This document shows positions 48,058 to 62,795 of a stretch of DNA of 62,795 bases, piece by piece. The position numbers and the translations under genes are program-made. The DNA lies in the NCBI GenBank assembly GCA_964491155.1, contig CAZBFG010000002.1, forward strand, positions 1 through 62,795, read 5' to 3'. Below the pieces are notes generated by a model. It made no database searches. It was not told where the DNA came from and worked only from the letters and a program-made list of their open reading frames with translations. Each line of letters begins with the position of its first letter. Positions within the stretch are counted from its first letter, which is position 1. Source of the DNA: an uncultured Bdellovibrionales bacterium (GTDB lineage: Bacteria; Patescibacteriota; Minisyncoccia; Moranbacterales; UBA1568).

Positions 48058-48073
48058 GCGGGAGCGACCGGAC
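48058..48073. repeat. left direct repeat (attL core), displaced tRNA-Asp 3' fragment
   Basis: GCGGGAGCGACCGGAC identical to 62033-62048; similarity continues (TCGAAC) after a 2-nt indel. Confidence 0.65.
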
Positions 48074-48186: not shown

Positions 48187-48226
48187 TCCCAAAAGAAAAG
48201 CTCCGTCCACAAGGATAGAGCTTTTC
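48187..48226 (-). terminator. intrinsic terminator closing the island operon
   Basis: GAAAAGCTC (48195-48203) / GAGCTTTTC (48218-48226); minus strand continues TTTTGGG. Confidence 0.55.
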
Positions 48227-48374
48227 TTTGATGCGGGGACGACGGTACGCAATTGGGAACGATTACCGACCGGTTATTCTCGTGAAATGGCTCCAAAATA
48301 TCGGGAGGTTTGACTTACTAATCAGACGAATCGAAAAGCTCATGGCGTGCTAATTTCTGACTTTTGGGAGTAAT

Positions 48375-49193
48375 CTATAGCGAGTTGTAATCGTGACATT
48401 GAATCACACCCGGCGTATCTTTAATTTTCCCCCACTCAAAGTCATACCTTTTGTCATTAATCCAATCAGGGTACTTCACTCTAAAGTAACTTCCAACGGC
48501 TGGATCCATACCATCACCAATCCCTTCGACTATGAGGGACCCTTCTTGGTAAGAAAAATCTTCATTAAGGAATTGTGCTGACAGTAAAGCAACTAAACCA
48601 GAGGTTGCTTCAACTAAGTTTTTTAGATTTGCATGTTCAAACTTTGAGTGTATGTCATGCTTGGTTTCATTGTAATATTGGTACCAACTTTTGATTTCAC
48701 TTTTATCTTCACCTTTGTACTCACGGTAGTATTGATACCAATTAAGATCCGCTTTACCCCAGTTTTTAAATGGACAATAACGATCAAGTCCCAAGTGCTC
48801 GTTCGTATCCCATCTTGGCAATGAAACTTCATAACTAGACAACTGATGGGTTTTCTCTATAAGGCAGTAATCATGCATGTTCCAATCCTTCTCTTGTTTT
48901 TTTGAATAACCATTCTCTCGCAATATAGCCTTGCAATTAGCTTCTACTTCAATACAAACTCTAATAAATAGTTCATGAATTCTATATGAGTATGTTCTTT
49001 TATTTTTATCACTTGGTTCTACATACTCAAAGATTTTTTGTAAGTCATTTTGTATGATAAGGAAAGAGCGGATGTATTTTTCTGGTGAGTTCGCATACTC
49101 TGGGTGCTTTATGTACCTCGAGTTGCCACTGCTACTGTACGATCCATCCTTAAGTTGTCTAGCAGTTCTTCTGTACGGCTGTTCTATTGCCAT
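48375..49193 (-). CDS. hypothetical Trp/Tyr-rich protein (272 aa), last gene of the island operon
   Basis: long ORF in AT-rich DNA; internal duplicated WYQYY motif; possible HEPN-like helical core is speculation only. Confidence 0.65.
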   Translation of the reverse strand: MAIEQPYRRTARQLKDGSYSSSGNSRYIKHPEYANSPEKYIRSFLIIQNDLQKIFEYVEPSDKNKRTYSYRIHELFIRVCIEVEANCKAILRENGYSKKQEKDWNMHDYCLIEKTHQLSSYEVSLPRWDTNEHLGLDRYCPFKNWGKADLNWYQYYREYKGEDKSEIKSWYQYYNETKHDIHSKFEHANLKNLVEATSGLVALLSAQFLNEDFSYQEGSLIVEGIGDGMDPAVGSYFRVKYPDWINDKRYDFEWGKIKDTPGVIQCHDYNSL

Positions 49194-49277
49194 AGATTTT
49201 TATTGATGAGTGAAAACAAATCGACCCTCCCCTTTATTCTGCAATAATCGAATCTAAAAAAATATTTTTCGCGTTTC

Positions 49278-51731
49278 CTAATCTTCAAAACTTATTTTCC
49301 GCAACTGACTGTCTTCTGCGACTCGCTTTCGTTCTTCCATTTCACTGCTTTGGAGGTAGCCAATCATTTCTGTAACAAATTTCTTTACGCGTCTATTCTT
49401 TGATTCCTTGTATTTCTGAAGAATTTCTACCTTCCCCTTGTAGGCATCCGCAATCCCATATTCTCCAGATACCACGCCAGTAGCATACATAGTTGCACCA
49501 ATCTTTTTGTGAATCTTATCATTGTCTGTCCGCGCAATAATCTGCATACCGAGTTCAAAGTCTGCTTCGCCTATGCCCTCAATCACATACGCTACTCGAA
49601 GCAAGTCCTTATCATCACCTCTTGCTACGATGTCGGATAAAACTTGCCGCCTATCTACATTGATACTCTCCAAGAATCGACTAACTTCCCAGTTGTAAAG
49701 AGACCAGCCTAGAGTCATTTTTAGCACCCAACTTTTTACAGTAGCTGCAAGTCTTTTTTGATCCTCAGTCAACAATTTCTGAAGGTCCGGATTAAGATGA
49801 TAGGGTATTGCCTCAAACTCTTTCCGCTTCATTAATCGCTTTATGCCATGCGACTTGTCTTTTTTCTGGAGAAAAATAGTCCGTGAAATTCTTTTTTTAA
49901 AAAGATTCATTATGCAATCAAAGTCTTTCTCACAAAGCTCAATCAAAAATTCCTGTAGATGCCAATCTAAGTTAGGGGCCTCCACAACTTTGTTCAAAAG
50001 GTATTTCTTAAACGCCTTGCTCGCTAAAGAAAGATCAATCCACTTCCAGACTGTCGCAATGAACTGTAACGCTTGATAATGAATAGCGGCGTATTCTGCA
50101 TTATTTTGTATTTCTTCTCTTATAAGCCACTCTATCTTTCGTTTTTGTGGCTTAAAGTTAAAAGCAAGGGCGTGAAAAAGACGGTCATGCAAGTACCATA
50201 GTGAAGCATCTTTTCTCTTTGACTTCAGGAAACTAAATCTCTTTTTTTTGAAAACAATCTCCTCAAGAATATTCAACTCATTAAAGCGGAGCTTTCTTGG
50301 AACCTGTTCCTGTGCATGAGCAACAAGAGAATTACATATCCCACCCATAAGATAGATGGCTTGCTTCCTAATAATCAACTCAGAATATTTGTCCCACAGG
50401 TCCGATTTCTGCGTAACTTGAAAACCAATCAAAAAACTCTCAGCAAAGTTAATCAGGGGCTTATCTCGTTTAAATGCGTCACCTAACAACCCGTCGGCAA
50501 CTTCTGACGTTTCGGATGACAACATCTCAAGAAATCTCTTGAAATCACCCAATTTCCATTCCTCAATAACATCTTTCTGTTTTGCAAGAATATTTAATAC
50601 TTCTGTCCACTCTAATAGACCCTCATCTGATATTTTCGCAATAAGATCTCGCTGATCTTTTTCTCTTCGCTGTTTTGATTCTTCATATCCCTCTTCGCCT
50701 CGATATGCAGCACGACCGCCAATCATAGGTCGAACTTTTTCATAAAAAGAATCTTTCAGTATGTCTTCTCGTAGTTCTACTAGGTCAGATGGACGCCCTC
50801 TATCTGGCTTAGCAAGGTAATAAAACCTTTCTTCAATTTCTTCTACAACAGCAATATTTTCTCTAATGATATTTCCTGATTTATCAAAAATCATTTTCCG
50901 ATATATATTTGATAAATACTTTGCATCATCATCTAACATTCCTCTCAAACTGTCGGAATATTTAACATTACCTGGGCTACGAAACGCCTCTTCTAAAGCA
51001 GAAGAGAGTCGAAGCCTGACTTTTAAATCTGATGTTCTAGTGTATAGATCGTAGACAAAGTCTATAGTCTCCCTTCGTATTTTTTTAAGAAAATTAGTCG
51101 GATCAACTTGTGCAAAGTTCATTGTTAATGTCTTTTCATCCGACCAAGAAGAGCCCTCGACGGAAGAGTTCAGAAGCTCTTTTACAACTGCAAAAATAAA
51201 ATCAAGATTGGTTAAGCGTTTCTTCATGGGCCACTTCAAGATATAATCCAAAACTATTCTTTGGACACTATACCCAATCTTTGAATTAAACAAAACTGCA
51301 TAATCATACTTTGTAAGTTTTTTAAGTACCTCTAAAGCTTTTTCCTTAATCAACTCCTCCTCATTTGTGATAACCACCTCAAGTAGAGGTAAGACTTTCT
51401 TTGGAAGAATATACCGAATCTTAGATAGCAAACTAAGACCCTTAAGAACTATATCTGTTCTTGACTTACCTTCAAGCACTCCAAACTTTGATCTTGATTT
51501 TAGAACGGGAAAGGACGTCTGTAGAATATACTTAAAAATTTCAATAGTCTGTTCAGAGCCTTTATAGACAAATTCCTCTAATAGATCGAGTTTTTCATAA
51601 ATAACATCATTATTCTTTGGAGATTTGAGAATTTCATCCCTAAGTTCATCGGCAAACACAGACAGTTGTTTATCTGCCTTTTCATTTCCAAGAGCCATCA
51701 GTTGACACAATATTTGCTTTTGTATGCTCAT
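49278..51731 (-). CDS. large all-helical protein of unknown function (817 aa)
   Basis: 2.4-kb ORF in roughly 36% GC DNA; Leu/Lys/Glu-rich, repeat-like helices; no catalytic motif seen; ATGA overlap with the HNH gene. Confidence 0.8.
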   Translation of the reverse strand: MSIQKQILCQLMALGNEKADKQLSVFADELRDEILKSPKNNDVIYEKLDLLEEFVYKGSEQTIEIFKYILQTSFPVLKSRSKFGVLEGKSRTDIVLKGLSLLSKIRYILPKKVLPLLEVVITNEEELIKEKALEVLKKLTKYDYAVLFNSKIGYSVQRIVLDYILKWPMKKRLTNLDFIFAVVKELLNSSVEGSSWSDEKTLTMNFAQVDPTNFLKKIRRETIDFVYDLYTRTSDLKVRLRLSSALEEAFRSPGNVKYSDSLRGMLDDDAKYLSNIYRKMIFDKSGNIIRENIAVVEEIEERFYYLAKPDRGRPSDLVELREDILKDSFYEKVRPMIGGRAAYRGEEGYEESKQRREKDQRDLIAKISDEGLLEWTEVLNILAKQKDVIEEWKLGDFKRFLEMLSSETSEVADGLLGDAFKRDKPLINFAESFLIGFQVTQKSDLWDKYSELIIRKQAIYLMGGICNSLVAHAQEQVPRKLRFNELNILEEIVFKKKRFSFLKSKRKDASLWYLHDRLFHALAFNFKPQKRKIEWLIREEIQNNAEYAAIHYQALQFIATVWKWIDLSLASKAFKKYLLNKVVEAPNLDWHLQEFLIELCEKDFDCIMNLFKKRISRTIFLQKKDKSHGIKRLMKRKEFEAIPYHLNPDLQKLLTEDQKRLAATVKSWVLKMTLGWSLYNWEVSRFLESINVDRRQVLSDIVARGDDKDLLRVAYVIEGIGEADFELGMQIIARTDNDKIHKKIGATMYATGVVSGEYGIADAYKGKVEILQKYKESKNRRVKKFVTEMIGYLQSSEMEERKRVAEDSQLRKISFED

Positions 51732-52390
51732 ATCCGAGTAAACTTTTCGATTATTTCTTTGATATCCAACTTTCCAGATGTAATGAGTTCACTTAAGGCA
51801 ACTTTCGCATCAGACTTATCCTTAAGAGAAACCAGCCCTCCCGTAACGTCTACTAGTCCTAGTTGAATAAGTTGATTTAGTATTGCTTCCTCTTCTTCAG
51901 AGGTAGCGTCTAACAATATACGCACCGTTTGTCTGACGGATTCACCGCGCTGGTCTATATAAAACTCCGGAATTAAGTAAATAAAACATTGATAAAAAAT
52001 AATCTTGTCTGAGTTTCTAGTAAGCATCTCATGATACTTTAACTGCAATGTTGCAAAGTCACTCGACACAGTAATTTTTTCTGAATTCGTTAAATAAAAA
52101 ACGACTTTTTGCAATTTTAGCAGCTCTTCACTTGCTTGCTTAGCACGATTTTTATACTCACGAAAATCATTGGGGGATATCTTGCCATCATGAGCCATTC
52201 CATGACAGTTACTACAAATACACACAATATTGTCGGAGACATTATTCTCCCTATTACCATCAATATGGTGCAACGTTAGAGAGATCCTTTCTTTGCAAAC
52301 TAGACAAGAGTGGTTCGCCTCAACCTTAATTTCCCTTTGTAAAGTTGATGGGATTTTCTTCCTTGGTTTCGTGTATTTCTTTGGTGACAT
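51728..52390 (-). CDS. HNH endonuclease with C-terminal helical (wHTH-like) extension
   Basis: CLVC..HHIDGNRENN..N..CSNCHGMAH (aa 29-67). Confidence 0.8.
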   Translation of the reverse strand: MSPKKYTKPRKKIPSTLQREIKVEANHSCLVCKERISLTLHHIDGNRENNVSDNIVCICSNCHGMAHDGKISPNDFREYKNRAKQASEELLKLQKVVFYLTNSEKITVSSDFATLQLKYHEMLTRNSDKIIFYQCFIYLIPEFYIDQRGESVRQTVRILLDATSEEEEAILNQLIQLGLVDVTGGLVSLKDKSDAKVALSELITSGKLDIKEIIEKFTRI

Positions 52391-52415
52391 ATAAGCTGAC
52401 GCTCATTCTATAAAA

Positions 52416-55400
52416 CTAACGTGTACTTTCCGAGACATGTTTCTTTATTATGAAAAAAATCTCCATCAAAATATTCTGCTTTCGGTGCCTTAAGTCCTCC
52501 CGGTTAGTTGCTAAATCCAAATCTGTACTCGCATCGGTGTCAGTAGATTTCTTTAAGTAATCCGAGGAGAAATGTATCGCCCCAAACTTTACCGTGGCTT
52601 GATTGGCTAAATTATATAGTGCAACAGCACGGGCAATCTTGGAGGATTCAATATCTATAGTATCGATTTTTTTCTTGGAAAAGCTTTCGCGTTGAGCAAA
52701 AGTTTCTTCCATTGTTGTAGATACAGAAACATGAGCTAAAGAAGAGTATTCCTTAATATATTCCATGGAGTTACTTATTTTGGAACCTATACTCATAATT
52801 TCGTTCCTTCTTCCTACGACAAATGATTTTGGTATGTATATTCTTTTATATACCTCGCGAGGAGATTTTAAAGTGCCAACCTTGCCTATGTGTAAAACTT
52901 CAGATGCATTTAGCTGGCATATTTTCTGCGCTAAAAAATCACTTATATCACCCCAGTGGCCGTAGTTTGCCTCAAGACAGTTTATTACCTTGCCATTTTT
53001 AGAAATAAATCTCGTAGCCGAGTAATACTTATTTTGGTGAGTACTCAGCACGGAAAAATCAGGATCTTTCTCAAGCTGGTTTTTAAAGAAGGTGCTATAA
53101 CCAAGAATCACTACGTCATTCTTGATAATCATTCTATCATCCAAGCCTGTCCATTTATCTATCTTTTTTTCAGCTAATGGATAAGCGTAGGCGCTCACTG
53201 AGACTGATAGATTTCTTAAATAATACTTCAGCATGGAAGCGTAGTGGATCAGCAGATCCCGACCCGGAGTAACACAACAAACAAGAAGCTTTTTCGAACC
53301 TCTCTCTGCTACCAAGAACATCGGCCTCAAACTGTTGCTATTATCGGTTTTCCCCTTACTAAAGTGAATTACTTCCACTATATTGAATCCTAGACTCAAC
53401 TCGTTTAGAACTTTAAGATCTGGATATATGCCATGAACCTCAACACTATCTATCTCCTTAACCCTGCTCTCTATTAGTTCTATCGGCAGTTTAGACTGTA
53501 TGTATTTTTCCAGTGAAATGGTCATCGTATGATCGCTCACGTAGGGCGTATCGAAATTCTTATCTGGAACTCTGATTACCTTGCTGTATATATCCAGACG
53601 TTCTAGTGAAAAGTACTTATTAATAAAGTTAGTTATCGAATCCGTAAATTCAAAATTTGGTATCTGATCTTTTGTGATCCACTTAAAAGAGAGCGATTCT
53701 TCATTGATTCTTATTTTCTTGTCTTCTACAACAGTCGAGGTATAGTCATAAAAATGATAGTGGTTACCGCTCTTCGCAGTATAGTCACGCACTCCCAAAA
53801 GATTGATATGCTCAACCATTAGCCCGGTTTCCTCAAAAACCTCACGTACAAATGCTTCAATAGGAGCTTCATTCATACCGAGCTTGCCGCCAGGTACGAC
53901 CCATTTCCCATGGTCTTTGCCCTTGCTTGTCTGGAGTATTAAAAATTGTCCCGTTGAGTTGTAGATGAGCCCTCCTGAGGCAAGAATTTTATAGGTCTCC
54001 TTAGGATTGAAAAGTCTTCTGTAATATGACAAAAAAGCACGGAAGTTTTTTGTATCGGTCGGGATTTGAAAACTTATTTTTGACTTAATGGCAAATCTTT
54101 TTCGATAAGATTCTCGAACCGTTTCGAAACCATCCTGACCGTTGCAGTAGTCTGGCAAATCACTATTGCTTCTCATTAGTAACCAGGCACTTATAACTTT
54201 TGCGATTCTACCACAACCATCAACAAAAACATGTCCACAAAAATCAATATTCCATTCAATCCAGGCGGCCAAATCCGTTGGTGCAGTTTCGGGATTTTTA
54301 ATCTTCTTATGGAACTGATTAATAAATGATTTGTAGAATTTTTTTACGTACTGAGTATCGACATAGAAATATTTATGCGAGTTGCTCCCACTCCTTATCA
54401 TCAACTTTTCGTTAGTCACAATCCCCCGATTGACCATCTTTGCTATCTGATCGATGAAATCTTGAAGCACCTGGGGTGATAGCAAGTGCAGGCTCTTATT
54501 ATCGTATGCAAAGTCAAAAGCCTGGATTACATTACTTCTCGTAATATCGGCGAGGTCCTTCTTTGGCACGAGCAAATTAACAAGCATCGGCTTGTCCTTC
54601 GAGGCAGAAACGTTCAGTTCTCCTCCAAATGTTCTGCTTGTATTTTCAATATTACGCAAGAGCCTGTTTAGGTATTCCTCCTTAGAAAAGCGTGGTGTGT
54701 AACTTCTGCGCGAATGCTTATCAAGAGCAGACTGAAGCGTCTCTTTATTAGAGAGTACGGTATCCTTTAGACTTTCAGCGTTTGCTATATATCGAACCTC
54801 AGATTCCTGCGCTATATTTTTCTTATTACTTTTGTAATCCCTTTTAAGACTGACAACAACTGGGTGCCCATTGCTATTGATAAGTACGGTAGAGTAATCT
54901 TTCACCCATCTTGAGTCGATTGATTTTTCCAAAAAAGACAGTCGCCCCTCTTCAATCGCCCTATAACTTTTATAGAGGGCCGAGAAGTCTGGGGTGGGAT
55001 CACTCGGGTATACTCCAGTTCTCTCAAGGACTCGTAGTGCCGATGTTATGAAATCAACTTTCAAGTCAAAGATAGTAACGGGCAGCTTTCTCTGAGCAGC
55101 ATCAACTAATAGATCATCAAGATCAGAAGGATCTTGCATTCTCTTATCAATGACGTATCCCAAGTTAGATTCCCTGACAAGCTTAAGAATTTTCTCGCCA
55201 ATAACAGACGCCTCCTCATGAAAGAGGTATCCGGAAAATGCGTGTCCCGTTACATTGTGGGTATTTAAAAGCAGTTGTCTTTTTACAGCATCGGTATTTA
55301 ACACGCCATCAAAAGCCTCCAACGTCTTTATATTTTGACGGAGAAGACTTTGGATAAAAGAGGATTTCCCAGACGCCACAGATCCTCTCACACAGTAGAT

Positions 55401-55961
55401 TCCTCTTCCTAGTTTTTTTGATCGCACTACTTTCTGTGACAGAATCTCGGCACTTTTATAACAATGGCGTATCAGTTCGTCGTGAACCCGAACTCTCTCA
55501 CTGATCCAATTTTTCTCATCATTGAGGCATCTTCGTAGGGTGACCTTGTCTATGTTATGAGTATCAAAGTTTGTAAAAACATCATAGGACTTTAACTCTG
55601 ATTTTGCTACCGAAAGCAGTAAGCACCTTAAGGAAACACTGTGGGTCTTACCCTGATGGCTCTCATTATCGTGTAGCTTGATCTGATTCAGGACTCTTTT
55701 TAGACTGACAATATCCATGCCTGTCACCTCAACCTCGAGAGAGGAGTTAATGAACACCAGATACTTTTCACTCACTTTCAGCGCCTGCAATACAAGTGGC
55801 TTCAAAAACTTTCTATCAGCATGCGCGTTTATAGAACGCACGGCACTTTCTATATCAAGACTGTCAGTGCTCAACAAACTTACCAGTATACTGGCAGCGC
55901 CTTCCTGATTGAATTGCGAGAGCTTCTCTTTTACGATATTCGCGTTCATAAAAAACATCAA
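52416..55961 (-). CDS. 1181-aa multidomain protein: unknown N-domain + zeta-toxin-like P-loop kinase + Fic + Nudix + PNP/MTAN-like nucleosidase fold
   Basis: Walker A GSVASGKS (aa 193-200) with LNTD (221-224); Fic motif HVFVDGCGRIAK (577-588); exact Nudix box G692-x5-E-x7-REVFEETGL (to 714); HIGKVGT (1024-1030), DIESSKIA (1103-1110), HFSSD (1130-1134) as in PNP_UDP enzymes; track start is TTG 55961, ATG at 55958. Confidence 0.85.
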   Translation of the reverse strand: MMFFMNANIVKEKLSQFNQEGAASILVSLLSTDSLDIESAVRSINAHADRKFLKPLVLQALKVSEKYLVFINSSLEVEVTGMDIVSLKRVLNQIKLHDNESHQGKTHSVSLRCLLLSVAKSELKSYDVFTNFDTHNIDKVTLRRCLNDEKNWISERVRVHDELIRHCYKSAEILSQKVVRSKKLGRGIYCVRGSVASGKSSFIQSLLRQNIKTLEAFDGVLNTDAVKRQLLLNTHNVTGHAFSGYLFHEEASVIGEKILKLVRESNLGYVIDKRMQDPSDLDDLLVDAAQRKLPVTIFDLKVDFITSALRVLERTGVYPSDPTPDFSALYKSYRAIEEGRLSFLEKSIDSRWVKDYSTVLINSNGHPVVVSLKRDYKSNKKNIAQESEVRYIANAESLKDTVLSNKETLQSALDKHSRRSYTPRFSKEEYLNRLLRNIENTSRTFGGELNVSASKDKPMLVNLLVPKKDLADITRSNVIQAFDFAYDNKSLHLLSPQVLQDFIDQIAKMVNRGIVTNEKLMIRSGSNSHKYFYVDTQYVKKFYKSFINQFHKKIKNPETAPTDLAAWIEWNIDFCGHVFVDGCGRIAKVISAWLLMRSNSDLPDYCNGQDGFETVRESYRKRFAIKSKISFQIPTDTKNFRAFLSYYRRLFNPKETYKILASGGLIYNSTGQFLILQTSKGKDHGKWVVPGGKLGMNEAPIEAFVREVFEETGLMVEHINLLGVRDYTAKSGNHYHFYDYTSTVVEDKKIRINEESLSFKWITKDQIPNFEFTDSITNFINKYFSLERLDIYSKVIRVPDKNFDTPYVSDHTMTISLEKYIQSKLPIELIESRVKEIDSVEVHGIYPDLKVLNELSLGFNIVEVIHFSKGKTDNSNSLRPMFLVAERGSKKLLVCCVTPGRDLLIHYASMLKYYLRNLSVSVSAYAYPLAEKKIDKWTGLDDRMIIKNDVVILGYSTFFKNQLEKDPDFSVLSTHQNKYYSATRFISKNGKVINCLEANYGHWGDISDFLAQKICQLNASEVLHIGKVGTLKSPREVYKRIYIPKSFVVGRRNEIMSIGSKISNSMEYIKEYSSLAHVSVSTTMEETFAQRESFSKKKIDTIDIESSKIARAVALYNLANQATVKFGAIHFSSDYLKKSTDTDASTDLDLATNREDLRHRKQNILMEIFFIIKKHVSESTR

Positions 55962-56500
55962 GCCAGTATATCAAGCAGCTCATGAATTTCTTTGATCGAC
56001 TTTAGGTCTTGAGGAATCTCATCTGGCATTTTTGAAACGCTATTTTCTATGAAAAAAGCATCTATACCGATATTTTTTGCCGCGAGGTAGTCATAGAAGT
56101 AACTGTCCCCGACCATAAGAGCATCATTCTTACTGAGACCTAAAGAAGCCAGGATTTCTAGCATAATCGCGGCTTTCCCATTCGGATCGTCTCCACTAGA
56201 AGATCTGTGCGCGTAGAACAGACTGCTCAGCCCGAAGTACTCGAGCCTTTCTTTAATCTCTTTGATGGCAATTTCCTCAGCGTAGGGGTTGGCCGAAAGC
56301 ACTACAAGGTATATTCCCCTTTCCCTCAGAGCCTCCAGGGTTTCTTTGGTCCGCGGCGTCAACTCCAAATGCTCCAAATAATTATCTTTCGTTTCTGGAT
56401 CATGGTAAATCCAGTGGGGTTTTTGCGTGCGCTTTGTCGCCTTGGGATACCAAAGTGTTCCGTCACCATCGAGAAACACTATTTTCTTCTTCGTTTTCAT
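55958..56500 (-). CDS. HAD-superfamily phosphatase (IIIA-like)
   Basis: motif I FLDGDGT (D11, D13), motif II LSAN, Lys109, motif IV GDSYFYD. Confidence 0.8.
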   Translation of the reverse strand: MKTKKKIVFLDGDGTLWYPKATKRTQKPHWIYHDPETKDNYLEHLELTPRTKETLEALRERGIYLVVLSANPYAEEIAIKEIKERLEYFGLSSLFYAHRSSSGDDPNGKAAIMLEILASLGLSKNDALMVGDSYFYDYLAAKNIGIDAFFIENSVSKMPDEIPQDLKSIKEIHELLDILA

Positions 56501-56523
56501 ACGCTTACTCTTGTTCAGATAGT

Positions 56524-57129
56524 TTAAAAAATCTCCAACTCCTCAACTATTTTTCCTTCCGATTTCAATCTTTCCAAATCAGCTTCAAGATTATTCTTTA
56601 TTGCCCTCACTCTTTCGAGTTGAGTAAGTCGGTAAGTATTCGTATTGCGAGACTCGATTCTTTTCTTGAGTTCTTCCTCAGAAATCTTTAGATAAATAAC
56701 GACATCAGAGTCTACGAGTGTACTTCCAAAAGCAGGGCGTCCAGCTTCGATACTTATTTGGCTCTGAGTATACCCCGTTAACAGTTCGGTCGTTTCTCTC
56801 AGGTAAGCTTGGTGTTCATCGCTGGCTGGATCGAACTCTTTTTCAGAATATTTCACAGTCTTTCTATCGCCATCAATGAACATGAACGGGTGCTCATGGT
56901 GCAGTACATGTCTTTTAAAATCCTCTGGCATACCATCAAACACCGCGTCTAAATCGACGCCTGCCTTGATGTGTTGGAGGATAGTACTCTTTCCGACGCT
57001 TGGTGGCGCAAGCACCAACACCCTCTTATCTTTATATTTTTCTAGTAGTGATTCAAGAGTCTCTGCGTGTCCTTTTCCCTCCTTTGGGTTTAGGTGCATG
57101 TCTCTAAAATCTTTTTTCTCAAACGACAT
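56524..57129 (-). CDS. P-loop nucleotide/nucleoside kinase-like protein
   Basis: Walker A APPSVGKST (aa 41-49); VVIYLKISEEELKKRIESR lid-like segment typical of NMP kinases. Confidence 0.7.
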   Translation of the reverse strand: MSFEKKDFRDMHLNPKEGKGHAETLESLLEKYKDKRVLVLAPPSVGKSTILQHIKAGVDLDAVFDGMPEDFKRHVLHHEHPFMFIDGDRKTVKYSEKEFDPASDEHQAYLRETTELLTGYTQSQISIEAGRPAFGSTLVDSDVVIYLKISEEELKKRIESRNTNTYRLTQLERVRAIKNNLEADLERLKSEGKIVEELEIF

Positions 57130-57132
57130 ATA

Positions 57133-57333
57133 TCATTTCTCATTGTTAAGAATTTTCTCGAGATCTTCTTTTCGATACCGTCGATCCTTTCTCGTTCCAA
57201 AACGAATGGCCTTTAGAATTCCCTTATTGTCCCAATTCCTTAAAGTGTTGGGATGGCAATGTAAAAGCGTACAGGCCTCAGCAAGAGTGAGAATATCGGG
57301 TATTTCCTTTGTTTTCACGGATTGTTTTTTCAT
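57133..57333 (-). CDS. MerR/excisionase-family helix-turn-helix protein
   Basis: LTLAEACTLLHCHPNTLRNWDNKGILKAIRFG..RRYRKEDLEKIL. Confidence 0.75.
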   Translation of the reverse strand: MKKQSVKTKEIPDILTLAEACTLLHCHPNTLRNWDNKGILKAIRFGTRKDRRYRKEDLEKILNNEK

Positions 57334-59389: not shown

Positions 59390-59394
59390 GAGAA

Positions 59395-60377
59395 CTTGAA
59401 AAATCGTGAAAGGGAAAATCGCAGAGAATCGCCCTATCAGTCCTTTAGAGAGAGTGTTCGAGCGGCGCCCGCAAGGAGCCACCCTACCAACAGTCGAGGC
59501 AGGGGCCGGCCCGACGCGCAGAGGAAGCGGCTCCGGCATGGGGCGCGGAAAGAAATCCAAAGAGCATGACACTCCCCCGACCCGCCACCGCCTCTCCACC
59601 ACGCGTCTGCATAATCTGTTATTAGGCGATGTCTCGCCTCGAGAAGGTCGCCTAATAATGGTCCTGATTATGCGATGCTTGGTGAGAGTGCGGCTTTGCC
59701 CTCGTTTATCAGGGAAGGGTGGCCGGGGGGTATCCACCCTGATATCTACGAGGGCACGGGTCGGAACAGAAAGAGTGTCATTCCCTTTTCCGCGCAATGA
59801 GAAAGAGTGACTTCGTCACACGATATGAAAAGCGTGCCGTGATGCAGGTGGGCCCGACGGTCTGTAATCGGATCCGGCGGGTCGCCCTGCAAGGCCACGG
59901 CACACCGTATTGGCTGCTCTACCGTTTGATAGCAGGAGTCGGCTGGTGGCCGGGTGGGTTTCGGTACCGGACGTGCCCACCGCTACGAGCCAGACAGTCC
60001 CGATTGCGGGTCTGTCTGGTGAGAGGGGCACGAGGTACAGAGATTCCGCACGGTGACCGGCTGTTCTTTGGGCAAAGCGTCGGGTGGCACTACGTTTGAG
60101 GAGGATGGAGCGTTTGTTTGGTAGGAGCCAAGCCCACACCGACCGAAGGGAGGCGAGCATAGCGAGAGAGGAGCGGAAGCGACGTGGGCGGTGAAGTTGC
60201 AGGAACGTTTGTTAGGAGCTATTTGGAAGAACCAAGAAATATGCAGTATACTGACTTTGGACACAATTTCAATGTTTCGGAAGAGGAGCAACTTTTATTA
60301 GTTGTTCCGGTGAAAGGACGACTTTCGCCACAGCTTCCGAAAGGGAATTGTGTCCAGGCGAGGTCGTCCTTTTATTT
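59395..60377 (+). ncRNA. candidate large structured RNA (family unknown)
   Basis: GC-rich segment (42 of 60 on line 59941) in AT-rich island; only Arg/Pro/Gly-rich junk ORFs on both strands; nested perfect hairpins at 59619-59658, 59699-59754 and 59990-60019; long-range pair 59834-59841/59895-59902; terminator-like two-tier stem plus T-tract at 60313-60377. Confidence 0.45.
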
Positions 60378-60384
60378 GGGCATT

Positions 60385-60516
60385 ATGAATCTTTCCAATC
60401 CAAAATTTCGATACAAGGGATCCAAGCCGTTCTGGTTGTGGACCACTGGTGAATGGTTTTTTTATACCACTATCTTTCTTATCGGCTGGATCATTATCAT
60501 TTTGAATGATCTATGA
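60385..60516 (+). CDS. small hydrophobic peptide overlapping the recombinase start
   Basis: MNLSNPKFRYKGSKPFWLWTTGEWFFYTTIFLIGWIIIILNDL; stop overlaps the recombinase ATG (ATGA); an upstream ATG at 60241 would cross the terminator-like hairpin. Confidence 0.35.
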   Translation: MNLSNPKFRYKGSKPFWLWTTGEWFFYTTIFLIGWIIIILNDL

Positions 60517-62072
60517 ACTACATCATTTACGCGAGAAAATCGACCGAGAGTGAAGACAGGCAATCTTTGTCTATCCAATCGCAGATTATTGAAATGCAAG
60601 AAATTGCTCAGCGCGAAGGCGTGCGTGTGGTGAAGATTTTTCAAGAATCAAAATCCGCCAAAGAACCAGGACGACCGGTCTTTGCGGAGATGATCAAATA
60701 TATTCAATCGGGAAAAGCACAGGGAGTACTGTGCTGGAAGATTGATCGACTGGCACGCAACCCTGTCGATGAAGGATTGGTGAAATGGCTCTTGCAAAAA
60801 GAGGTTATCAAACAAATCCGCACATCTGACCGGGAATATAATCCCGACGACAATGTGGTGATTGCGAGTATTGAGTTTAGCATGGCCAATCAGTACATCC
60901 GCGACTTGAGCAAAAACGTGAAGCGAGGATTAGCGGAAAAAGTTCGTCGTGGTGAATACCCGGGGTGCCAGTCACTCGGATATACTCGTGATCCAAAAAC
61001 AAAGATCCTTCAGATTGATCCGGCTACCGCTCCCTACGTCCGCACTGCCTTTGAACTCTACGCCACGCACCACTGGTCTATCCTCAGGCTTGCTGACAAA
61101 CTCTACGAGGATGGCTTACGTTCTCGAAGTGGCAGGAAACTGGGGAAATCACGCCTGCACCGCATTCTTTCCAATCCCCTCTACTGCGGACTCTTTGAAT
61201 GGAACGGACAAACACACAAAGGCGTCCACCCTCCTCTCGTTTCCAAAAGACTCTTCGACGAAGCCCAGCAGAAACTCTTTCCCGAACGCTACCTCACCCG
61301 CAAAACAAAGCGTTCATTTCTCTTCCGCGGATTAGCGATATGTGGCGAGTGTGGGTTGAAAATAACAGCGGAAATAAAAAAGGGACATACGTATTACCGC
61401 TGTACCAAATCCCATGGGACACAACACTGCTCACAGAAATACCTGCGAGAAGAAGAACTGATCAAGGCCATCGAGAAAGAATCCAAAAAAGTCCACTTTG
61501 ACGATGAGATACTCGACCTCATTTTCGAAGCATCCAAAGAACAGCTCGCCCAAATATCAGGCGAGACCACTGAACGCAAAGACGAGCTAGCCGCTTTGCT
61601 CATCACAGTACAAAAGCGAAGGGAATCGCTTATCGAGAAGTTTATCGATAACGCTATCCCAAAAGAAATTTACGATCGGAAGTACTCGGAATCTATCGAA
61701 GAAGAAGCAAGTATAGAAGAGAGGCTCCAACAATTCGACCACGACAACGGAGATCCTCTCACAGACTTGAAGACTATCATCGGCTTTGTCAGAACAGCGC
61801 ACGATATCTTCAATAAAGGCGACGATTCTATCAAAAAAGAAATAGCCTCTCTTTTATCTTCGAACTTCGCTCTCAAGGACCAAGAAATCGCTTATTTCAA
61901 CCTCAATGAGCCTTTCTCTTGGTTGGCAGAAGATGCCAGCGTCCTGTTGTCCCAAAAAACCACCTTCGAACCACTACTAACCCGCATGGATAAAAGAAAA
62001 ACAGCCTCCCATGAGACTGTATTTTCCAATTGGCGGGAGCGACCGGACTCGAACCGGCGACCTACTGCGTGA
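60513..62072 (+). CDS. large serine recombinase / integrase
   Basis: resolvase catalytic domain (IIYARKSTESEDRQSLSIQSQ, DRLARN), recombinase domain, zinc ribbon CGECG..YYRC, coiled-coil; last 14 codons read into the tRNA-Asp gene. Confidence 0.9.
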   Translation: MNYIIYARKSTESEDRQSLSIQSQIIEMQEIAQREGVRVVKIFQESKSAKEPGRPVFAEMIKYIQSGKAQGVLCWKIDRLARNPVDEGLVKWLLQKEVIKQIRTSDREYNPDDNVVIASIEFSMANQYIRDLSKNVKRGLAEKVRRGEYPGCQSLGYTRDPKTKILQIDPATAPYVRTAFELYATHHWSILRLADKLYEDGLRSRSGRKLGKSRLHRILSNPLYCGLFEWNGQTHKGVHPPLVSKRLFDEAQQKLFPERYLTRKTKRSFLFRGLAICGECGLKITAEIKKGHTYYRCTKSHGTQHCSQKYLREEELIKAIEKESKKVHFDDEILDLIFEASKEQLAQISGETTERKDELAALLITVQKRRESLIEKFIDNAIPKEIYDRKYSESIEEEASIEERLQQFDHDNGDPLTDLKTIIGFVRTAHDIFNKGDDSIKKEIASLLSSNFALKDQEIAYFNLNEPFSWLAEDASVLLSQKTTFEPLLTRMDKRKTASHETVFSNWRERPDSNRRPTA

Positions 62073-62107
62073 CAGGCAGTCGCTCTAACCAGCTGAGCTA
62101 CGCCCCC
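62031..62107 (-). tRNA. tRNA-Asp (anticodon GTC), CCA encoded
   Basis: hand-folded cloverleaf: acceptor GGGGGCG/CGCTCCC, D stem GCTC/GAGC, anticodon stem ACTGC/GCAGT with loop CTGTCAC, T arm GCCGG TTCGAGT CCGGT. Confidence 0.9.
62033..62048. repeat. right direct repeat (attR core) inside tRNA-Asp
   Basis: GCGGGAGCGACCGGAC identical to 48058-48073. Confidence 0.65.
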
Positions 62108-62741: not shown

Positions 62742-62795
62742 TTGCGGGGGGTGGATTCGAACCACCGACCTCTTGGTTATGAGCCAAGCGAGCTG
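62742..62795 (-). tRNA. partial tRNA with CAT anticodon, cut by the window end
   Basis: anticodon stem CTTGG/CCAAG, loop CTCATAA, T arm GGTGG TTCGAAT CCACC, acceptor 3' strand CCCCGCA. Confidence 0.7.

Follow-up and report, generated by a model that had tools for sequence, protein, structure and literature searches.

Seven genes on an island in tRNA-Asp

A run of seven co-directional minus-strand genes lies between positions 57333 and 48375 of contig CAZBFG010000002.1, a 62,795-nt stretch of DNA from an uncultured bacterium of the Patescibacteriota order Moranbacterales (this whole stretch is the window referred to below). From its 5′ end, the run encodes a 66-aa helix-turn-helix (HTH) protein (57133–57333), a 201-aa P-loop kinase-like protein (56524–57129), a 180-aa HAD phosphatase (55958–56500), an 1181-aa large enzyme with a TTG start (52416–55961), a 220-aa HNH-adaptor protein (51728–52390), an 817-aa α-solenoid (49278–51731) and a 272-aa Trp/Tyr-rich protein (48375–49193), with successive junctions of 3 nt, 23 nt, a 4-nt overlap, 25 nt, a 4-nt ATGA overlap and 84 nt. 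When checked, these open reading frames (ORFs) and spacings agreed with a first-pass annotation of the window, and the 9-bp hairpin with a T-tract that it had placed at the end of the run is also present. Read from the sequence, this hairpin lies 3′ of the last gene on the minus strand (~48187–48229), with the stem GAAAAGCTC/GAGCTTTTC and then TTTT, and is likely where transcription of the cargo unit terminates; its loop, of more than 8 nt, kept it off the list of a generic terminator scan. Promoter and terminator counts along the run were at chance level, and it is on their spacing that the seven genes plausibly form an operon.

The run belongs, as had been proposed, to a mobile island of low G+C content integrated in a tRNA gene; the island measures ~14 kb, lies in tRNA-Asp and carries a serine recombinase. 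The left end of the island is marked by a 16-nt direct repeat (GCGGGAGCGACCGGAC, 48058–48073) of the 3′ end of the tRNA-Asp(GTC) gene (62031–62107, minus strand; identified by ARAGORN and Rfam), an exact copy of 62033–62048 beyond which similarity continues with gaps through TCGAAC; it is because the tRNA 3′ end recurs there that the island measures ~14 kb. At the other end, the gene for the large serine recombinase (60513–62072, plus strand; Pfam Resolvase, Recombinase and Zn_ribbon_recom; phrog_95 integrase, E 2e-81) overlaps tRNA-Asp, on the opposite strand, with its 3′ end. G+C content is 35–43% over 48–59 kb versus ~50% in the backbone, which bears out the low values first counted by hand. 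The island also contains a divergent 336-aa gene and a small replication-initiator-like gene (phrog_154, E 2e-7), and no virion gene was found on it in the ORF list or by the PHROG search.

To place the seven genes, we gathered all accessible loci that encode a relative of the 1181-aa protein from GTDB genomes, JGI metagenomes and exact-protein look-ups, 12 of them non-redundant, and searched all island proteins by tblastn against 17, then 20, loci (numbered L001 onwards). Only the 201-aa and 180-aa genes recur with the 1181-aa gene (the three are called the triad below), in a fixed order and in 12/12 non-redundant loci, where tblastn revealed no homologue of the HTH, HNH, 817-aa, 272-aa or 336-aa proteins and clustering of flanking ORFs no further gene common to more than two loci. 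The HNH and 817-aa genes form a conserved pair of their own in unrelated loci, the triad being absent from six loci with 817-aa relatives, and the 272-aa gene is solitary in other elements. By these comparisons, the run resolves into three independent accessory modules in series: A (201, 180 and 1181 aa), B (220 and 817 aa) and C (272 aa). The first-pass annotation had looked to co-localisation of homologues as a mark of a single system; in the loci compared, homologues co-localise within the modules and not between them. In our judgement, the 9-kb run is probably the cargo transcription unit of a ~14-kb serine-recombinase island in a tRNA-Asp gene of Patescibacteria (the Candidate Phyla Radiation, CPR), made up of an HTH regulator and three unrelated modules behind it.

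In what was first suggested, a single defence or toxin system of all seven genes, the nucleotide enzymes would produce or remove a signal, with the 817-aa protein as sensor and the HNH protein as executor. Co-directionality, junctions of at most 84 nt, a single terminal hairpin and the want of any named system that accounts for the genes all suit this idea; yet 12/12 triad loci have no HTH, HNH, solenoid or 272-aa homologue, 6/6 solenoid loci have no triad, the triad comes elsewhere with a promoter-like box and a 3′ element of its own and the 272-aa gene stands alone elsewhere, which together make a single system highly improbable.

Family searches in Pfam, NCBIfam, PADLOC-DB v2 (2023; newer descriptions are outside its scope) and PHROGs upheld the view that no named system corresponds to the run: matches in PADLOC, Pfam and NCBIfam were to generic domains only, and none of the four collections gave a system-level assignment to the island proteins. 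None of the modules belongs to Septu, Zorya, MADS, CBASS/Detocs, the short-Argonaute system SPARDA or the classical epsilon/zeta pairs, whose hallmarks were looked for and not found, and modules A and B are uncharacterised families. As in Septu, type II Zorya (ZorE) and MADS loci, HNH and P-loop genes occur here in one run, with weak matches to ZorE, mad1 (the HTH protein) and mad8 (the P-loop protein), but no island protein matched the PtuA or PtuB models of PADLOC at E ≤0.1, and ZorA/B, a methyltransferase and further MADS genes were not found on the island. The MAD1 match, of 34 bits in PADLOC, reached only 16.6 bits against a cut-off of 80 in NCBIfam, and that to mad8 had E 9e-4. The likeness to Septu that had been drawn from an HNH nuclease beside a P-loop ATPase was lost, the conserved partner of the HNH protein being the solenoid protein and not the kinase.

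The cassette of kinase, HAD and large-enzyme genes

The multi-enzyme fusion recognised in the 1181-aa protein is real and conserved: 24 full-length homologues, of ~1175 aa and 45–84% identical, could be aligned and are collinear. An AlphaFold2 model of the window protein has a mean predicted local distance difference test score (pLDDT) of 73.8 and is good for residues 1–650. The protein opens with an α+β domain (residues 1–~143; 55533–55961, minus strand as for all domains below) that is modelled with pLDDT ~85–92 and kept in all homologues, and for which we found no Pfam or NCBIfam family match.

Residues ~144–403 (54753–55532) form a zeta kinase domain of the AvrRxo1 type. The domain matched NCBIfam XopAJ/AvrRxo1 (NF041405) with E 4.8e-29, and the family profile matched PDB entry 4z8q with E 8e-16; Foldseek aligned the model with 4z8v_A (E 1.9e-12, target template-modelling (TM) score 0.74, root-mean-square deviation 3.3 Å) and, at lower significance, with zeta (1gvn, E 1.5e-5) and PezT (2p5t, E 1.2e-4). 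Against Pfam Zeta_toxin it scored 13.5 bits versus a threshold of 22.3, the best E among homologues being 1.4e-5. The Walker A segment GSVASGKSS (193–201) and D224 are invariant in the 24 homologues, and in alignment with AvrRxo1 K199/S200 correspond to K166/T167, and D224 to the catalytic D193 (D67 of zeta). AvrRxo1 makes 3′-NADP from NAD and requires D193 for this (PMC5087710, PMC5491322), its D193N variant having lost both NAD 3′-kinase activity and toxicity (PMC5087710). By sequence and modelled fold, the domain is specifically AvrRxo1-like, nearer to AvrRxo1 than to zeta or PezT. The likeness to AvrRxo1 and zeta/PezT is confined to this region (fold, Walker A and catalytic Asp). Unlike AvrRxo1/XopAJ, the gene has no type III secretion context here; unlike both AvrRxo1 and zeta, its kinase is one of five domains in a single protein and comes with two fixed partner genes, and these, the 201-aa and HAD genes, are its sole conserved neighbours, with no epsilon, PezA or Arc1 antitoxin among them.

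The two domains that follow differ in how readily they can be assigned. A helical Fic-like domain (residues ~404–655; 53997–54752) contains the motif H577-V-F-V-D-G-C-G-R-I-A-K588 (HxFxDGCGRxxK), invariant in the 24 homologues, and gave weak matches to BT_2513 (3cuc) in Foldseek (E 1.2e-3, TM 0.54) and to Pfam Fic in 7/24 homologues (best E 0.034); the inhibitory-helix motif [ST]xxxE[GN] was not found in the large protein. The Nudix assignment (residues ~656–790; 53592–53996) is unambiguous at the level of sequence, with a Pfam NUDIX match of E 5.9e-17 (62.4 bits versus a gathering score of 21.1) and a Nudix box, G692-x5-E698-x7-R706-E707-x2-E710-E711, that is invariant in all 24.

The C-terminal ~390 residues (residues ~791–1181; 52419–53591) correspond to no named family. 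We found no match for this domain in Pfam (24 members, E ≤10), NCBIfam or PADLOC and nothing significant in the PDB with two family profiles; a stretch resembling L-asparaginase at E 0.17 in the PDB profile search was dismissed. A profile search of the whole protein library nonetheless yielded 378 representative proteins at E ≤1e-3 (P0203–P0350 among them), mostly stand-alone and of ~400 aa, that share the motifs HTM, GIYP, PGxDYxxHY, FWG, GKLGTL, SIDNE and HFATDYLR, with fusions to squalene-cyclase/TED-like toroids, DUF4062, GFO_IDH_MocA, Nudix and NACHT. In one case the domain lies N-terminal to a NACHT NTPase, and the N-terminal slot of NLR-like (NACHT) proteins is the usual effector position. 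Pairing with Nudix occurs in three independent arrangements: the 1181-aa family, protein P0249 and a Klebsiella plasmid operon in which a relative is accompanied by transporter, NUDIX and DegT aminotransferase genes. A relative from Klebsiella that bears the annotation 'RHS repeat-associated core domain-containing protein' amounts to 296 aa, a fragment between insertion sequence elements, and was given no weight as a sign of a polymorphic toxin.

The domain had been called a PNP/MTAN-like nucleosidase, and this is the one call in the large protein that the searches left unconfirmed; in the run as a whole, those of HTH_17/MerR, HAD, Nudix, zeta-type (now AvrRxo1-type) kinase, Fic, HNH and an all-helical 817-aa protein stood, and that of a P-loop kinase for the 201-aa protein was weak. 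Comparison by hhalign with E. coli DeoD, MTAN and the AMP nucleosidase Amn was not significant (probability ≤0.6%), and the PNP fold was not among the top 50 Foldseek matches of the protein. The alignments with DeoD and with MTAN, non-significant as they are, are collinear and consistent with each other in where they put the β5 strand, D-x-E and S/T-D; they pair the ordered elements hIGKxG ... D-x-E ... S/T-D-Y with β5, E-M-E (ribose binding) and the catalytic Asp, respectively. In the window protein the motifs read, in order, HIGKVGT, T-I-D-I-E (D1103/E1105) and S-S-D1134-Y; the D and E are invariant across the wide family, and the spacing from the E motif to the D is 29 residues versus 23 in PNP/MTAN. 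A very divergent PNP-like core behind an extra lobe of ~160 residues is possible from this motif order. Set beside the PNP effectors Cap17 and DtcC, however, the domain is ~160 residues longer than PNP/MTAN and has no significant profile or structure match, and a CD-NTase or two-component signalling partner, as in CBASS and Detocs, is not present here; the earlier parallel with Cap17 and Detocs, which depends on the PNP fold, is unsupported by these searches.

The two smaller proteins of the cassette are of recognisable types. The 201-aa protein, kept in 12/12 loci at 47–86% identity, has a Walker A motif (APPSVGKST, residues 41–49), which agrees with the P-loop kinase call made for it, but its family matches are all sub-threshold (AAA_18, E 2.6e-6, 28.3 bits versus a cut-off of 29.4; dNK and adenylate kinase models likewise). 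Its best PDB family-profile match was to 1ve3 (E 8e-5), an S-adenosylmethionine methyltransferase, in an alignment that covered β1, the Gly loop and the two strands after it; we judged this a chance Rossmann-like resemblance and rejected it, GKST of the Walker A motif and a C-terminal DVVIYL...R..SR of nucleoside monophosphate kinase type fitting kinases. The 180-aa protein is a HAD phosphatase with the DxDxT nucleophile motif D11-G-D-G-T15 and a small-cap, IIIA-like form (Pfam Hydrolase, E 8e-14, 52.9 bits versus a gathering score of 26.4; HAD_2, E 1.5e-12; NCBIfam HAD-IIIA, E 2.4e-9). The order of kinase and then HAD-IIIA matches that of T4 Pnkp, and the pair could be read as a split polynucleotide kinase-phosphatase that heals RNA or DNA ends, for instance after an anticodon nuclease. 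The HAD protein matched phrog_415 'polynucleotide kinase' at E 0.018, besides HAD-IIIA, and bacterial and phage polynucleotide kinases are found among the Foldseek P-loop neighbours of the large protein; such matches are, however, weak and of a kind that P-loop kinases and HAD phosphatases give in general, a ligase domain was not found and tblastn against 50,697 phage genomes revealed no relative of the 201-aa protein, and we consider end healing very unlikely.

The HAD gene lies directly upstream of the large gene in every triad locus and, in the two most divergent (L009, 3128–7195; L015, 9446–13510), both are a single frame of ~1354 aa, and for this reason we argue that they are directly linked in function. 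Such a link, together with carriage by mobile elements, would also be expected of a toxin-antitoxin-like addiction module that keeps the element stable, with the AvrRxo1/zeta kinase as toxin and the HAD protein reversing its product, given that zeta and AvrRxo1 toxins are neutralised by a linked partner (PMC5087710, PMC10532202). We regard this as quite unlikely: a fused toxin and antidote cannot act via differential stability, three more catalytic domains and a second kinase would be left unexplained and no epsilon-, PezA- or Arc1-like protein is encoded.

The cassette has boundaries of its own in other genomes, with a conserved TGTATAAT promoter-like box and a conserved 3′ region in which no small conserved ORF, as a possible antitoxin, was found in those loci. 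In eight loci a ~180-nt conserved 3′ segment carries one or two palindromes, GAGACA-N(6–12)-TGTCTC, 30–110 nt past the stop of the large gene (13593–13616 in L001, 13560–13614 in L007 and 13614–13637 in L025); among 37 loci these are confined to the triad 3′ position, and the window, where 0.02 would be expected by chance, has none. For the cassette they might serve as terminator, operator or recombination site. In the window other genes stand in for both flanks of the triad, HTH upstream and HNH downstream. Moreover, triad G+C is 2–13 points below that of the flanks in 8/8 loci tested, and the triad proteins are 66–82% identical between genomes whose flanking RecG is 40% identical. Vertical inheritance was also considered, three genomes sharing flanks, but the lower G+C and an identity above that of RecG argue for transfer of the triad as the likelier course. 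Module A thus has the appearance, from sequence comparison, of a self-contained, horizontally mobile cassette.

Its genomic contexts are diverse. The triad occurs in conjugative elements with VirB4, TrbL, coupling-protein and Replic_Relax genes (L002 and L003), on an island with a ParB-methylase and a Schlafen/AlbA_2 gene and at plain chromosomal sites that lack mobility genes within 10 kb; those carriers that have names are Candidatus Moranbacteria and Gracilibacteria. In one Moranbacteria locus (L001, 17994–19402), a bAvd accessory gene beside a reverse transcriptase lies ~4.5 kb downstream of the triad, an arrangement that looks like a diversity-generating retroelement. The 1181-aa family is rare and patchy, with ~30 clusters among 5.8 billion proteins.

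Some triads lie among housekeeping genes (RecG and ClpB are the flanks shared by the three genomes), and in L002 thymidylate-kinase-like and His_Phos_1 genes are directly downstream. Since all parts of module A are enzymes of nucleotide-metabolism type, and the stand-alone Klebsiella relative of the C-terminal domain is accompanied by transporter, NUDIX and DegT genes, the module might serve nucleotide salvage or housekeeping in Patescibacteria without de novo synthesis, its presence on mobile elements being incidental. So rare and patchy a family, foreign in composition in every locus, better conserved than the flanking RecG and carried by conjugative and integrative elements, makes this unlikely, as does the kind of parts involved, AvrRxo1/zeta kinases and Fic being typically toxins or effectors rather than salvage enzymes (PMC5087710), and the placement of the C-terminal domain ahead of a NACHT NTPase.

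The multi-enzyme build recalls instead the polyvalent proteins of phages and conjugative elements, in which many catalytic domains share one polypeptide (Iyer et al., 2017; PMC5512222): the 1181-aa enzyme likewise has four recognisable catalytic domains, and the cassette stands beside conjugation genes in L002 and L003, on type IV secretion/relaxase elements, and is carried by the present island as well. Module A could then be a counter-defence device, possibly transferred with the DNA, that destroys or modifies host immune nucleotides or restores depleted NAD+. In L002 and L003 it adjoins genes for type IV secretion and a coupling protein, and in BFVD the structural neighbours of the 1181-aa protein are phage proteins, large and multi-domain, that include zeta toxins; one carries an annotation for the anti-CBASS protein Acb1. 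Counter-defence is nevertheless doubtful: besides the chromosomal sites without mobility genes, the 1181-aa family profile had no match in IMG/VR (2.9 million viral contigs), a tblastn search of the large protein against the 50,697 phage genomes gave one match, to Nudix only, and there is no secretion signal or evidence of transfer. In addition, the survey of polyvalent proteins (PMC5512222) omits zeta and Fic and does not mention the set of zeta-type kinase, Fic, Nudix and C-terminal domain, and the 1181-aa protein, unlike those, keeps a rigid, unshuffled architecture, is tied to two obligate partner genes and is also found outside recognisable elements.

The HNH-adaptor and solenoid pair, the solitary gene and the rest of the island

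The genes of module B overlap by 4 nt, the stop of the 220-aa gene with the start of the 817-aa gene. In the 220-aa protein, an HNH effector domain (residues ~1–95; 52106–52390, minus strand), with the motif HHIDGN...N...CxxCH read from the sequence, precedes an adaptor domain of ~115 aa (residues ~106–220; 51731–52075, minus strand). The HNH part matched phrog_1271 HNH endonuclease (E 3e-10), with Pfam HNH under threshold and, for the core only, weak matches to ZorE and homing endonucleases in PADLOC. The 817-aa protein is modelled by AlphaFold2 as an almost entirely helical α-solenoid of HEAT/ARM-like type (49278–51731, minus strand; pLDDT 88.2, predicted TM score 0.76); Foldseek found only generic solenoids (CAND1, karyopherins and condensin HEAT subunits, TM 0.2–0.37), and no Pfam, NCBIfam, PADLOC or PDB sequence match was obtained.

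Its relatives (n=39) are either ~805–817 aa alone or ~1010 aa with an N-terminal RelA/SpoT domain, the fused form accounting for ~12 clusters, about a third of relatives; fused forms that are more remote lie on Sphingobium and Rhizobium plasmids. The RelA/SpoT part matches the PADLOC candidate PDC-S33 (E 6e-12 to 2e-9), and no PADLOC model covers the solenoid. Where the solenoid gene is separate, the gene upstream always differs at its N-terminus and ends in the shared adaptor, as seen with a profile built from three copies. The adaptor stands behind HNH in L019 (50% identity over the whole protein, with an identical 4-nt overlap with the solenoid gene), behind a DUF4365 nuclease in L018 (E 3e-11, tblastn) and behind an uncharacterised 320-aa domain in L030 (E 5.5e-12), and in P0066 it is fused to the solenoid itself (E 1.3e-13). 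In all, the pair or fusion is found in seven loci, with HNH, DUF4365, RelA/SpoT and one uncharacterised domain as effectors, and neighbours of the solenoid loci include type IIG and type I restriction enzymes, GmrSD, DEAD/ResIII with a methylase, PD-(D/E)xK and SIR2. A ~360-aa Cys-rich (zinc-ribbon-like) protein, absent from the window, is encoded downstream of the solenoid gene in L018 (7385–8476) and L020 (11660–12742) and may be a further accessory partner in some lineages.

By its architecture and company, module B looks like a two-gene candidate defence system with plug-in effectors on a conserved adaptor. The α-solenoid would act as a sensor or scaffold and hold the nuclease through the adaptor, which would dock the exchangeable effector (here HNH), until a trigger released or activated it. 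SPARDA and SPARTA offer a parallel, in that module B likewise joins a small protein, with an exchangeable effector on a constant adaptor, to a large partner, and HNH and DUF4365 are alternative nuclease effectors of SPARDA (PMC10810196). Here, however, the partner is an α-solenoid and not an Argonaute, there is no guide-binding domain, Ago or APAZ models gave no match for module B in Pfam or PADLOC and the L018 DUF4365 protein matches the model of the pAgo-associated restriction endonuclease only at E 3e-4. The RelA/SpoT-solenoid relatives resemble toxSAS/CapRel and PDC-S33 in being single chains of an effector and a C-terminal regulatory or sensor region, but the window copy is without the RelA/SpoT domain. 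A solenoid of ~800 aa is far larger than the C-terminal region of CapRel. By analogy, module B would work most like sensor-plus-swappable-effector immunity.

Module C, the 272-aa gene, appears to be a stand-alone cargo gene of mobile elements. Its protein has 503 relatives across phyla at E ≤1e-3, all of them unnamed and free of Pfam domains, matches phrog_19461 (E 5e-13; no function assigned) and gave no PADLOC match. Relatives were found as cargo between the replication genes and the integrase of a Burkholderia P4-like satellite, in final position ahead of the serine recombinase in a Patescibacteria element, on conjugative plasmids and as gene 1 of the P2-like Salmonella phage SEN8 (L032), where it shares the interval from cos to the portal gene with a putative HNH endonuclease gene next to it (the two at 128–1126 and 1183–2142), a site typical of accessory genes. 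In P2 and P4 elements, sites of this kind are, we presume, hotspots for anti-phage genes. At the head of the run, the 66-aa protein is of the HTH_17/MerR-excisionase type (Pfam, E 1e-11) and putatively a regulator or recombination directionality factor of the element; because homologues 72–73% identical to it head cargo operons of other content in L018 and L020, we assign it to the element or to cargo expression and not to the triad.

Two further features of the region are recorded here. A ~0.8-kb stretch of 55–70% G+C (59390–60210) inside the AT-rich island, upstream of and co-directional with the serine recombinase, contains no credible ORF and no Rfam match; in RNA folding against shuffled controls it gave z = −5.9 on the plus strand (minimum free energy −381 kcal/mol) and z = −5.5 on the minus strand, and may be a large structured RNA of the element. 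Downstream of tRNA-Asp and a tRNA-Met, a third tRNA gene is cut by the window end (62742–62795), which places the island at the edge of a tRNA gene cluster.

What modules A and B may do

For module A, we infer an action on NAD+ or another adenine nucleotide. The AvrRxo1-type domain would phosphorylate the nucleotide, the Nudix and C-terminal domains would then cut the pyrophosphate bond and, possibly, the glycosidic bond, and the HAD phosphatase would remove a phosphate, as the next step or as a built-in reversal, with the net effect that a nucleotide pool would be remodelled or depleted where mobile elements and cells are in conflict. The module might act in defence, in counter-defence or as an addiction device, and its nearest analogue in mode of action would be a polyvalent effector that targets nucleotides, with an AvrRxo1-type kinase at its centre. 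With an NAD or NAD-like 3′-kinase, a non-canonical Fic domain, a Nudix domain and a new effector domain, likewise employed by NACHT (NLR-like) proteins and, as an enzyme by itself, by many bacteria, that together would turn an essential adenine nucleotide into a toxic, unusable or signal product, and a HAD protein to reverse it, the cassette could be an unrecognised mobile nucleotide-conflict machine of Patescibacteria, beside a second new defence family of HNH-adaptor and solenoid; we put this forward tentatively, as a possibility well short of an even chance, every activity named in it being a predicted one, as is the part in defence.

Several observations weigh against this picture. The kinase domain, at 101.6 bits, is far under the NCBIfam XopAJ cut-off of 300; the Fic motif departs from HxFx(D/E)GNGRxxR in having GCG for GNG and K for the final R; the AlphaFold2 model is poor in the Nudix and C-terminal regions, with pLDDT <50 at residues 1030–1104; and neither profile searches nor hhalign lend the nucleosidase idea for the C-terminal domain statistical support. 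No antitoxin-like small gene lies beside the zeta-type kinase, and the triads among housekeeping genes, with the flanks that three genomes share, could point to a stable metabolic role. As for module B, it has no NTPase and no recognisable sensor domain, the 817-aa family profile found no relative in IMG/VR, and its suggested defence role is drawn from architecture and from the neighbourhood in six loci only. Finally, given the tight spacing, all seven genes of the run may be co-transcribed here, and their products could interact.

For genome scans, the lesson of this locus is that co-directional genes in tight spacing on an island are not the same as a system, and that comparative synteny separates modules quickly. 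CPR bacteria are rarely cultivated and, for this reason, their defence and counter-defence are almost unexplored. If our inferences hold, the run would supply three cloneable candidates from this poorly explored phylum. Module A would extend NAD- and nucleotide-targeting conflict chemistry past NADases and nucleosidases, and the use of its C-terminal family by NACHT proteins would give that family a testable role as an effector; the solenoid of module B would be a sensor family that swaps HNH, DUF4365 and RelA/SpoT effectors as in proven immune systems.

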